DNA of 64,000 nt from Desulfobacteraceae bacterium (GTDB taxonomy: Bacteria; Desulfobacterota; Desulfobacteria; Desulfobacterales; SKZT01). Location: assembly GCA_011389745.1 (NCBI GenBank), contig JAABTQ010000004.1:83007-147006 (forward strand), in the 5' to 3' direction. The notes below the pieces were generated by a model, which saw only the letters and a program-made list of their open reading frames with translations, had not been told where the DNA came from and searched no databases. A program made the translations under genes and the position numbers. This document shows positions 34,977 through 37,067 of this stretch, piece after piece. The first letter of the stretch is position 1; each line of letters begins with the position of its first letter.

Positions 34977-37067
34977 TTACGCGGCAACATCTTTGTTGTA
35001 ACAAATCCGGCAACAAGCCAGGCAACGGTGAGCTTCCCGGATAGCATCTTCTTCCTGAAGCACCAGATCTGCCTCATCAAACGTTTTAATTCTGTCATAG
35101 ACGGGCAACTCCGGCATTTCCGCTCGGTTCTTCTTCTGAATGCCCGGTACTTTCTCAAATATGGATTCTTTAATATGTTTTTTGAAAAGCGCTGACCCAG
35201 GAGCTTTAACTTCTTCACCCGATAAATATTGATGAATCGATCTGGCTGCTCTTCGGCCGCCTCCAATAGCTTCTACTACGAGTGAAGCACCTGTTGCGGA
35301 ATCTCCGGCAGTAAAAATATATGGAATGTTTGTTTGAAGCGTTATGGGATCGACTGCATCGATAGTGTTCCATCGGGTTATGGCGAGTTCCTGAATTCGT
35401 TTGGTGTCAGCATTCATAAAAGAGACATCCGGACCTTGCCCGATTGCAGTAATCAGCATATCGCATTCCATCAGGGTTTCAGAACCTTCCACAGGTACAG
35501 GTCGTCTTCTTCCGCTTGCATCAGGTTCTCCCAATTCCATTTTTAAATATTCCAGGTGGGTAACATGACCGTTTTCATCTCCGATTACCCGTGTGGGAGC
35601 TGCAAGAAATGTAAATTTTATTCCTTCATGTTCTGCAGCAACGATTTCAACCTCGTTGGCCGGCATTTCTTTTCTGGTGCGGCGGTACACAATATTGACT
35701 TCTTCGGCACCTAATCTTACTAAAGTACGCACACAGTCGATCGCTGTATTTCCGCCTCCGATAACCACACACTTTTTACCGATAGGAATCTCTTCATTAC
35801 TTTTACCCTGCTGAGCAGTGGCAAATCGTGTCAAAAAATTAATACCCGTGTAGCATCCTTTAAGATCTTCGCCTTCAACTTTCATATTGTAGTCTTTCCA
35901 AGCGCCCACCCCAAGGAATATGGCATCATAGCCTGCAGCGACAAGTGATCCGACAGTAAAATCCTTTCCAAGTTTTACACTGGTTTTGGCTTCGATTCCC
36001 AAATTAAGTATACCATCGATCTCCCATTTCAGCACCTTTTTTGGCAGACGATATTCGGGGATTCCATAACGGATCATACCACCCAGCTCAGGATTGTCAT
36101 CAAACACGGTAACTGAATGACCAAGCCTTTTAAGAAAAAATGCACAACTCAAACCCGCGGGTCCACCACCAACCACAGCAACTTTTTTTCCGGTGTCAGG
36201 AGCGACGGATATATGTAAACGCTTTCCTGAATTCATTTCATAGTCAGCGGCAAAGCGTTTCAATTGATTAATGGAAACGGCTTCATCTTCAATACCTCTG
36301 CGGCAAAAATCTTCGCAAGGATGCGGACATACCCTTCCACAAGAAAGAAGCAATGGATTCCTCTCTCTGATTGTATGCACGGCTCCTTCATAATCTCCCT
36401 CCCGAATCTGAGAAATATATTTGGGAATATCGATTTCAGCAGGACAGGTCTGCTGACACGGGCCGAGTGCATCTTCTTCCTTGTTTAACTCAAGGAGCCG
36501 TTGCGACATGGTTCTGATTTTTATTATACTCTTGGGACAGACCCGTTCACAGGCTCCGCATCCGACGCATTTTTCTTCAATAACAACCGGAAACCCATCA
36601 GGCCCCATTTCAATGGCATCAAATGCACAAGCAGTTATGCAATCACCCAATCCAAGACATCCGATCGTACACACCCTTTTTCCATCGTATAAAGCGGAAA
36701 GCGCACTGCAACTTTGGACACCCATATAATAGTATTTGTCATCCGCTCTGAAACCTCCGGTACACGTGTTTATGGAGCGAAGCGGCTCGGCAGTCCCTGG
36801 ATCAAGCCCCATCACCGCCGCAACATTGGCGGCACCTTCGGGCCCTGCAACCACACACACACTTGGAAGAGCCTCACCTTTGACCACGGCGCCAGCAGCC
36901 TGGGAACATCCCGCAAATCCGCATCCACCGCAATTTGCACCCGCCATTTTGTCTTCGACTTCAGCAATTCTGGGATCTTCATATACATAGAAGACTTTAC
37001 TGGCAGCACTTAATATACTTCCGCAGGATACCCCCAATCCCAACATAAATAGAACGGCTTCTATCAC
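34977..37067 (-). CDS. rnfB: RnfB fused to a GltD/NfnB-type NAD(P)H-FAD iron-sulfur oxidoreductase module
   Basis: Start GTG at 37067, 5 nt after AAGGAGG and just past the rnfA stop (the track starts at 37106). RnfB part: TM helix, [37 protein letters not shown]. GltD-like part: [71 protein letters not shown]. Confidence 0.85.
   Translation of the reverse strand: [696 protein letters not shown]

Follow-up and report, generated by a model that had tools for sequence, protein, structure and literature searches.

An Rnf2-type RnfB from an uncultured Desulfobacteraceae lineage, fused to a module resembling non-bifurcating NADPH-entry flavoproteins

An ion-translocating Rnf complex with an enlarged RnfB subunit has been described before. 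According to the passage in Dörries et al. 2016 (PMC5109826) that cites Wöhlbrand et al. 2016 (Proteomics), RnfB of the complex typified by Desulfobacula toluolica Tol2 is approximately 700 amino acids (aa) long and has NAD+-binding sites. The RnfC of this type lacks the flavin mononucleotide (FMN)-binding domain of NADH-ubiquinone oxidoreductase as well as the SLBB domain, and RnfB proteins of ~700 aa were detected by proteomics in cultured strains (PMC5109826). A 2025 study in Science Advances introduced the name Rnf2, found the complex in every Desulfobacteraceae genome, assigned it to the core genome, and reported its abundant and constitutive formation and a cytochrome c3 gene in its cluster (PMC11887813). 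Here, we analyzed a stretch of 64,000 nucleotides (nt) from a Desulfobacteraceae bacterium (assembly GCA_011389745.1, contig JAABTQ010000004.1, positions 83,007 to 147,006), referred to as the window. On its minus strand, between positions 34977 and 37067, lies a gene for a 696-aa protein that joins an RnfB to a flavoprotein module. This large RnfB is almost certainly the RnfB subunit of a Tol2-type, or Rnf2-type, complex.

The locus shares with the Rnf2/Tol2-type systems an RnfB of ~700 aa, in which an RnfB-like N-terminal part of ~200 aa is followed by a pyridine-nucleotide oxidoreductase part at the C-terminus, an RnfC without the NADH/FMN domain, a cytochrome c3-type gene in the cluster (positions 41190 to 41684), and a Desulfobacterales host. 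Its orthologues, at 64 to 92% identity, occur in the genera in which the complex was described. Nothing essential is different, except that the published descriptions speak of an NAD+/NADH-binding domain, whereas a YRR motif and kinship with StnC and NfnA point to NADP(H) here. The first-pass annotation had implied that the fusion is new. It is in fact already known, and the window gene is an orthologue of a documented kind from an uncultured Desulfobacteraceae lineage. A literature search for an RnfB-GltD/NfnB fusion under those words returned nothing; the description was found under "large RnfB / Rnf2". The window therefore holds no new kind of object, and its value is that of one more orthologue of Rnf2-type RnfB.

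The gene and its ribosome-binding sequence are located as follows.

34977 to 37067, minus strand: rnfB (large, Rnf2-type), 696 aa, GTG start, stop codon at 34977-34979
37073 to 37079, minus strand: Shine-Dalgarno sequence AAGGAGG, 5 nt (TTGCT) before the GTG at 37067, read from the sequence

Translation of positions 34977 to 37067 yielded a single unbroken frame of 696 aa followed by a stop codon. The stop codon of rnfA (TAA, 37086-37084) lies upstream of the AAGGAGG sequence. A mechanical open reading frame of 709 aa that begins at TTG 37106 was rejected, since the homologues start at the residue equivalent to the GTG and the Shine-Dalgarno sequence fits this codon. This start is shared by 66 aligned homologues of ~696 aa, with the consensus MxEAxLFML; these 66 sequences are the basis of the conservation values for RnfB given below. 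The start codon, Shine-Dalgarno spacing and protein length given in the first-pass annotation were all read again at the same positions, and every motif that it quoted was located (residues 45-54, 204 onward, 243-255, 295-308, 431-470, and 681-690). Domain parsing with hidden Markov models, a check proposed at that time, assigned residues 1 to 191 to RnfB models of NCBIfam and residues 197 to 690 to the GltD-type models PRK12771, PRK12814 and gltA. The junction falls at residues ~180 to 203, corresponding to positions 36460 to 36530, close to the initial estimate of 36400 to 36500, and the linker that joins the two parts is short.

The RnfB half comprises three features.

36984 to 37067, minus strand: N-terminal transmembrane helix, aa 1-28; helix 2-28 in the AlphaFold2 (AF2) model, aligned to the N-termini of 7zc6_B, 9eri_B and 8ahx_B
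36852 to 36941, minus strand: RnfB FeS domain, aa 43-72, C46-x2-C49-x4-C54-x16-C71, one [4Fe-4S] cluster; PF04060, E = 1.6e-8
36519 to 36680, minus strand: RnfB ferredoxin-type dicluster domain, aa 130-183, two [4Fe-4S] clusters; Fer4_21/Fer4_7 matches

The N-terminal third had been called a standard RnfB with a transmembrane helix and two ferredoxin-type motifs, and this description holds. The RnfB model TIGR01944 scored 75 bits, above its cutoff of 68.7, over 190 profile positions, and solved RnfB chains aligned with aa 4 to 191 (7zc6_B with its residues 7-195). Pfam placed a Fer4 dicluster at residues 137 to 183. Its eight cysteines (C133, C137, C143 and C147; C167, C170, C173 and C177) were invariant, as were the four of the PF04060 domain in 66 of 66 sequences, giving 12 invariant cysteines. 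As judged from these matches, aa 1 to 191 represent a complete minimal RnfB with the helix and three predicted [4Fe-4S] sites.

The remainder of the protein, from aa ~200 to 696, is an Fe-S/flavin adenine dinucleotide (FAD)/NAD(P)H module.

36228 to 36461, minus strand: Fer4_20 Fe-S domain, aa 203-280, profile positions 31-111; Pfam match, with ligands mapped onto NfnB and onto NfnA of C. saccharolyticus (Csac NfnA)
35259 to 36188, minus strand: Pyr_redox_2 two-Rossmann flavoprotein core, aa 294-603; PF07992, E = 5.8e-32, predicted local distance difference test (pLDDT) values mostly 80-97
35658 to 35780, minus strand: NAD(P)H Rossmann motif GGGNTAID (437-444) and Y461-R462-R463, aa 430-470; invariant
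35001 to 35093, minus strand: C-terminal tail, aa 659-689, EAHRC682LAC685C686RIC689; Pfam de-permutation test, aligned to RCLxC tails

Assignment of this part to the GltD/NfnB/SudA family, with one Rossmann fold for FAD and one for NAD(P)H, was borne out by the Fer4_20 and Pyr_redox_2 matches and by both nucleotide motifs. The FAD motif GGGPAG, at residues 300 to 305 within Pyr_redox_2, was likewise invariant. The module had also been described as colinear with GltD/NfnB. The family is right, but the Fe-S domain is permuted, as its Fer4_20 match begins only at profile position 31. A Cys-rich tail had been noted after the flavoprotein core; it is present, at residues 681 to 690, and the protein ends 7 residues beyond C689. 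Against aa 203 to 280, Fer4_20 matched at profile positions 31 to 111 only (88.2 bits), and the last 51 residues alone matched positions 1 to 29 (21.8 bits, E = 1.7e-4). In an artificial sequence with the tail spliced ahead of residue 200, the full match over positions 1 to 111 was restored (113.6 bits). This restoration argues for a displaced half-motif of the EAxRCLxC type and not an appendage; the reading of the tail as an additional cluster-binding appendage was given up after the splice test. The half-motif is predicted to supply two ligands of the distal [4Fe-4S] cluster in a layout like that of a circular permutation.

All eight Fer4_20 ligand positions, forming two [4Fe-4S] sets, were found in permuted order. 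Mapping onto T. maritima NfnB, in which C39, C42, C47 and C100 bind the distal and C51, C90, C96 and E117 the proximal cluster (PMC7596348), predicted C682, C685, C204 and C255 as distal and C208, C247, C251 and K270 as proximal ligands. Every one of these residues was invariant. With an offset of 100, the proximal set corresponds to C108, C147, C151 and K170 of Csac NfnA, the residues that ligate the FAD-proximal cluster A7 in the structure paper of that protein. K270 aligns with the glutamate E117 of T. maritima NfnB and with the glutamate of P. furiosus NfnI-L (LErF motif). Together with the RnfB half, the large RnfB is predicted to bind five [4Fe-4S] clusters (one plus two in the RnfB part and two in the module) and one FAD.

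The kinship of the module was assessed by sequence and by predicted structure. The best PDB sequence matches were T. sibiricus NfnA (9n5u_A, E = 9e-126), C. saccharolyticus NfnA (9bov_A) and S. ovata StnC (8oh5_C), with NfnB/NfnL (5jca_L, 4ylf_B), GltD and DPD ranking behind these Bfu-type modules. The AF2 model (mean pLDDT of 77.3, predicted template modeling score of 0.72) was used for a Foldseek search only, in which the Bfu type again came ahead of NfnB (top matches 9bov_A, 8oh5_C, 9n5u_A, 5jca_L and 4ylf_B). The Bfu-type NADPH modules, StnC and the NfnA of NfnABC, share 39 to 42% identity with the large RnfB in Foldseek alignments of 517 to 542 columns. In them, too, the Fe-S domain is permuted and RCLxC follows the flavoprotein core; the 3Cys+Lys proximal cluster and the GGGNTA...YRR signature are likewise shared, and the tail aligned with the RCLxC tails of StnC and of the NfnA proteins of C. 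saccharolyticus and T. sibiricus. They differ in their attachment: they form an insertion within a NuoG/FdhF-like subunit, onto which a HydBC-like bifurcating core is docked, whereas the module described here sits on RnfB. By these comparisons, the closest solved relatives of the module are non-bifurcating Bfu NADPH-entry modules and not classical NfnB. For StnC and NfnA, experiments have established the FAD as a non-bifurcating entry point for NADPH, located at one terminus of a linear chain of clusters.

The YRR motif bears on the choice of nucleotide. In NfnB, it binds the 2'-phosphate, and among DsrL proteins it sets the NADP(H) type apart from the NAD(H) type (PMC7596348). Residues 461 to 463 match the YRR of NfnB, which predicts NADPH as the nucleotide rather than the NADH of the literature proposal. 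We consider binding of NADP(H) by the fused module probable.

Full-length fused proteins were common among close relatives. A search of 5.8 billion proteins gave at least 120 clusters (90% identity) with full-length members at 72 to 95% identity. A scan of one genome per species gave 80 loci with full-length matches at 64 to 92% identity. These 80 are the best genome matches, and the fusion is thus conserved in at least 80 species. All of them are Desulfobacterales/Thermodesulfobacteriota records, including Desulfosudis oleivorans, Desulfocicer vacuolatum DSM 3385, the Olavius Delta4 symbiont, and metagenome-assembled genomes (MAGs) of Desulfobacula, Desulfamplus and Desulfosarcina. The closest relative was an uncultured Desulfobacteraceae MAG (L071; 92 to 93% identity). 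Database names for the fusion varied: "formate dehydrogenase (NADP+) beta subunit" and "glutamate synthase beta subunit-like" in JGI/KEGG-based records (P0001, P0003, P0024, P0039 and others), "FAD-dependent oxidoreductase" at NCBI, and also "RnfB". Because of these divergent labels, automated annotation masks the membership of the fusion in the Rnf complex.

In the window, the large rnfB is the last gene of an operon in the order cytochrome c-rnfCDGEA-rnfB, with all genes on the minus strand and rnfB adjoining rnfA.

37084 to 37659, minus strand: rnfA; TIGR01943, 244.6 bits, above cutoff
37683 to 38276, minus strand: rnfE; TIGR01948, 243.3 bits
38305 to 38952, minus strand: rnfG; NF045876 (RnfG_DVU2794), 233.4 bits, match from residue 19; flavinylation motif SGST
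38900 to 39859, minus strand: rnfD; TIGR01946, 221.3 bits; FDAIYPL replacing [ST][GT]ATPL
39852 to 41126, minus strand: rnfC, 424 aa; TIGR01945, 181 bits, under the cutoff of 246
41190 to 41684, minus strand: hexaheme c3-family cytochrome c, first operon gene; 6 CxxCH motifs, PF02085 and TmcA/c7-type matches

The true start of rnfG is likely ATG 38898 (residue M19 of the reading frame). The cytochrome c gene lies immediately upstream of rnfC, and its product has a hydrophobic signal or anchor at the N-terminus. When the window proteins were used in tblastn searches, the order cytc-rnfCDGEA-rnfB was found in most of the 80 loci, and a cytochrome c homologue in 59 of them. The large rnfB stood ahead of cytc-rnfCDGEA in ~10 of the 80 (L030-L033, L038, L045, L049, L066, L070 and L072).

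Two partner subunits are remodeled at their flavin sites. RnfC gave no Pfam match to SLBB or RnfC_N, and its Complex1_51K match was weak and began at profile position 24. Where solved RnfC chains show 'GMGGATFPT' and 'NAAECEPYLTCD', the window protein has 'SAVPGSPPL' and 'NGMDEDIAVTTN'. The FMN loop of RnfC was missing from 60 of 60 genome and 58 of 58 metagenome relatives. In RnfD, residues ~154 to 164 read FDAIYPLTALK, in alignment with TTATPL of the RnfD proteins of A. woodii and C. tetanomorphum (9eri_D and 7zc6_D) and with SGAT of NqrB, so that the threonine that carries the covalent FMN is replaced by tyrosine. None of 146 family members examined (66 genome-locus and 80 metagenome-locus sequences) had the motif [ST][GT]A[TS][PA]L. 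Loss of this threonine is not reported in the Rnf2 literature consulted (PMC5109826 and PMC11887813). A study of flavinylation showed the threonine as conserved in the RnfD/NqrB model logos and suggested that complexes of the Nqr/Rnf-like kind without it carry electrons from NAD(P)H to acceptors outside the cytosol (PMC10979944). RnfG retained its flavinylation site, which aligned with the GATIT motif of solved RnfG; xG[AS]T was found in 63 of 64 sequences of the metagenome set. The window RnfG has SGST (residues 181-184) in place of the usual SGAT, a variant seen in only 2 of 50 relatives. The alanine of SGAT is normally strongly conserved among ApbE targets.

More distant fused proteins were recovered from a library of representatives at 50% identity. 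There, full-length fusions extended down to 38% identity, and the next relatives beyond them were StnC-like proteins of 1000 to 1250 aa. The tail was conserved across all fused clades. In those at 38 to 46% identity, the RnfB part was retained together with the Fe-S ligands, FAD motif and tail; in many of them, the second Rossmann fold was degenerate and YRR was missing. Their gene contexts were diverse.

Clade P0165: cytc-rnfCDGEA-rnfB, then a 940-aa NuoG/FdhA/NuoE-like gene and a NuoF-like gene
Clade P0132: NuoE-like and NuoF-like genes directly upstream; RseC/MucC-like gene downstream
Clade P0122: rnfB with a fully canonical RnfC; no cytochrome gene
Clade P0167: rnfB, then a cytochrome b gene

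At L081 (9001-19173) and L082 (6145-11606), a large RnfB of 38 to 39% identity with a degenerate NADPH Rossmann fold and without YRR adjoins HydBC/StnAB-like genes; the neighbors are NuoF-like (587 to 596 aa), NuoE-like, DRTGG and 940-aa NuoG/FdhA-like genes. This context hints at a membrane-tethered Bfu-type assembly on RnfB. NuoE/F/G-like (Bfu) genes were absent, by tblastn, from the window and the 80 close loci. At L083/L084 (1028-7430), a large RnfB of 46% identity with GGGNVAID and without YRR accompanies an RnfC that has RnfC_N, Complex1_51K and SLBB, and there is no cytochrome c gene. At L086 (220-3262), a large RnfB of 41% identity, with YRR intact, precedes a Ni_hydr_CYTB-type cytochrome b gene, and the contig begins just upstream.

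The most likely mechanism, to which we give about an even chance, is by analogy a rewiring of the complex along the lines of Na+-NQR, in which NADP(H) enters at the RnfB arm and electrons leave by cytochrome c. The pyridine-nucleotide site would have moved from RnfC to the RnfB arm. NADPH would give a hydride to the non-bifurcating FAD, from which single electrons would pass through the two module clusters and the three RnfB clusters to the membrane center of RnfA/E, and from there to the periplasmic FMN of RnfG, coupled to export of Na+ or H+. From RnfG, they would most likely leave through the hexaheme cytochrome c and reach sulfate reduction via Qrc and menaquinone. The overall reaction may be reversible. 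At approximately -320 mV, the standard potential of NADPH is well below the approximately -74 mV of menaquinone. A path with NADPH as a principal donor fits the published cytochrome proposal (PMC11887813), from which it differs in the donor. The complete path from NADPH to cytochrome c, taken as a whole, we would put somewhere from tentative to evenly balanced.

Several observations weigh against this reading. In the published proposal, ferredoxin "and maybe also NADH" is oxidized and the cytochrome shuttles electrons to Qrc (PMC11887813), and the mode of action of the Tol2-type complex "awaits experimental verification" (PMC5109826). Since a full minimal RnfB makes up the N-terminal half, ferredoxin may still be able to dock at this part. 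RnfC retains both [4Fe-4S] motifs, CX2CX2CX3C(P), in all relatives, and these kept clusters argue that the RnfD/RnfC branch still passes electrons to something. The metagenome scan for RnfD gave close relatives only (61 to 93% identity) and no Desulfobacterota Rnf operons with a short RnfB, and the loss of the threonine may be general in Desulfobacterota Rnf and not specific to the large RnfB. Enlargement of RnfB and degeneration of RnfC are not strictly coupled, given the degenerate NADPH site or the canonical RnfC of distant fused clades. In ~10 of the 80 species, a lone large rnfB was found with no rnf gene within 9 kb (L044, L052, L053, L055, L057, L062, L065, L068, L069 and L076); that of L044 is flanked by gpsA on one side and gyrA-gyrB-dnaN-dnaA on the other. 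The AF2 model is of no more than moderate confidence, with pLDDT below 50 at residues 97 to 136 and at the extreme C-terminus.

A possible alternative, which we hold with some doubt, is the one proposed in the supplement of PMC11887813, in which reduced ferredoxin is the main donor at the RnfB dicluster and the flavoprotein module is a secondary port. The module would then add electrons from NAD(P)H or equilibrate ferredoxin with NADP(H) as a membrane-bound ferredoxin:NADP(H) oxidoreductase, while electrons flow to cytochrome c3 and/or an acceptor at the Fe-S clusters of RnfC and a Na+ gradient is formed. Alignment over the entire minimal RnfB and the two [4Fe-4S] motifs kept in RnfC are consistent with this, and single-subunit NfnB-like proteins can act as ferredoxin:NADP+ oxidoreductases (PMC12221290). 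However, the ferredoxin activity of StnC is very low and non-specific (PMC12221290), and the place of the extra ferredoxin-like domains found beyond residue ~195 in RnfB of A. woodii and C. tetanomorphum is taken here by the flavoprotein module. A short circuit from ferredoxin to NADP+ on one subunit would also waste the energy that the pump should conserve.

We consider it unlikely that the complex works in reverse, with the ion gradient driving electrons from periplasmic cytochrome c, or from a partner of RnfC, uphill to NADP+ so as to supply NADPH to biosynthetic reactions or the Wood-Ljungdahl pathway. Other organisms have reversible Rnf complexes, R. capsulatus being an example, StnC/NfnA modules run both ways in vitro, and several hosts of the fusion are facultative autotrophs; all three points were counted in favor. 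Yet under heterotrophic conditions NADPH would be produced and not scarce, and Rnf2 was constitutive and abundant under all heterotrophic substrate conditions tested (PMC5109826 and PMC11887813).

Flavin-based bifurcation at the fused FAD, in which, as in NfnB/NfnSL, NADPH would send some of its electrons into the low-potential RnfB chain and the others to a high-potential partner, is very unlikely. The module does have the NfnB/GltD fold, its R340 aligns with R201 of NfnB and R239 of StnC, and HydBC/StnAB-like genes adjoin the large rnfB in two distant clades. Against this, the proximal ligand K270 is invariant, as in the non-bifurcating StnC and NfnA and in place of the glutamate of NfnB, and the FAD ends a linear cluster chain in all of the closest solved relatives. 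An NfnA/PyrK-like or NuoEF-like partner gene was absent from the operon, its flanks and the 80 close loci. Classical NfnB-type bifurcation was thus disfavored by the lysine ligand and the lack of a partner gene.

That a sequencing error joined separate rnfB and gltD-like genes is practically negligible, and a frameshift at the junction was rejected, because the ~696-aa frame, in which the first-pass annotation had seen no stop or frame change between the parts, runs uninterrupted in 80 independently assembled species genomes, including the isolate DSM 3385 and closed long-read MAG chromosomes, and the same fusion occurs in the protein clusters described above and, as an RnfB of ~700 aa, in the proteomes of cultured strains.

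The operon has a B12-binding radical-SAM gene, ftsZ and ftsA on its upstream side; downstream of it, a FabH-like gene and recD2 run convergently on the opposite strand. The synteny of ftsA, ftsZ, the B12-binding radical-SAM gene (TIGR03960) and rnf (window positions 41925 to 46138, minus strand) was kept in 23 to 25 of the 80 genome loci, and the Rnf2 operon of many Desulfobacterales therefore stands last in the cell-division (dcw) cluster. An RseC/MucC-like gene was found in 18 loci (L021, L034, L035, L037, L039-L041, L043, L047, L048, L051, L054, L056, L058, L059, L061, L064 and L078), in 17 of them just upstream of the Rnf2 cytochrome c gene. At L021, as at L082, the match follows immediately downstream of the large rnfB. 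In the window, no RseC/MucC-like gene was present between the radical-SAM gene and the cytochrome gene. Scans for terminators and promoters at the operon ends gave nothing useful, the sole terminator-like match being within coding sequence.

Of the organic carbon in marine sediments, a large fraction is oxidized by Desulfobacteraceae. If the module serves as an NADP(H) port, with the second port at cytochrome c or at the RnfC stub, Rnf2 would account for the way in which NADPH made in the reverse Wood-Ljungdahl pathway or the tricarboxylic acid cycle feeds sulfate reduction while energy is conserved. The question gains weight from the core and constitutively abundant status of Rnf2 in this family (PMC11887813). 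To the published hypothesis, the present comparison adds an NADPH-type YRR, a putative Lys-ligated cluster, a cluster that is predicted to be completed by the tail, and an RnfD that would be without its flavin, which makes the hypothesis sharper and directly testable.

A broader reading, tentative at best, is that anaerobes arrived independently, in Rnf2, at the Na+-NQR design, with an ion-pumping NADPH dehydrogenase as the result. A permuted NADPH/FAD module of the StnC type would have been recruited onto RnfB, the covalent FMN of RnfD and the FMN/NADH site of RnfC discarded, and the exit set from the RnfG flavin to the hexaheme cytochrome c, while the HydBC-adjacent clades with a lost NADPH site would be membrane-tethered bifurcating assemblies. 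If true, it would provide complete-oxidizing sulfate reducers with the missing route from NADPH to the periplasmic/menaquinone pool.

Compared with the classical Rnf complexes of A. woodii (9eri), C. tetanomorphum (7zc6) and A. vinelandii (8ahx), the window operon encodes the same six subunits, rnfCDGEAB, with RnfA, RnfE and RnfG above cutoff and with the RnfB transmembrane helix, FeS and dicluster domains aligned (aa 4-191). It differs from them in the extra flavoprotein of ~500 aa on RnfB, the cytochrome c gene that leads the operon, an RnfC without GxGGAxFP and ECEPY, and an RnfD without the covalent-FMN threonine. The Rnf operon of Methanosarcina acetivorans is also headed by a multiheme cytochrome, MmcA, the probable electron exit; that system is archaeal and ferredoxin driven, with a short RnfB and no pyridine-nucleotide module. 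With NfnB (the large subunit of NfnSL), GltD and DPD, the large RnfB has Fer4_20 and Pyr_redox_2, both Rossmann motifs, YRR and seven of eight cluster-ligand positions in common. In those proteins, the first two distal-cluster cysteines are N-terminal, whereas in the window protein they come from the C-terminal tail; the proximal ligand here is lysine and not glutamate, and there is no NfnA/GltB partner.

The evolution of Na+-NQR from Rnf has been described as a replacement of RnfB by NqrF and a descent of NqrA from RnfC with loss of cofactors (PMC4014512). The logic of the window complex would be the same, with an NAD(P)H-oxidizing flavoprotein placed on an RnfB-type transmembrane helix that feeds RnfA/E (NqrD/E) and with a degenerate RnfC homologue. 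The parts are different, however. The FNR/[2Fe-2S] fold of NqrF bears no relation to GltD, NqrA has no clusters left whereas the window RnfC keeps two, and NqrB keeps its covalent FMN in a complex whose acceptor is ubiquinone. The likeness to Na+-NQR is one of analogy and not of membership.

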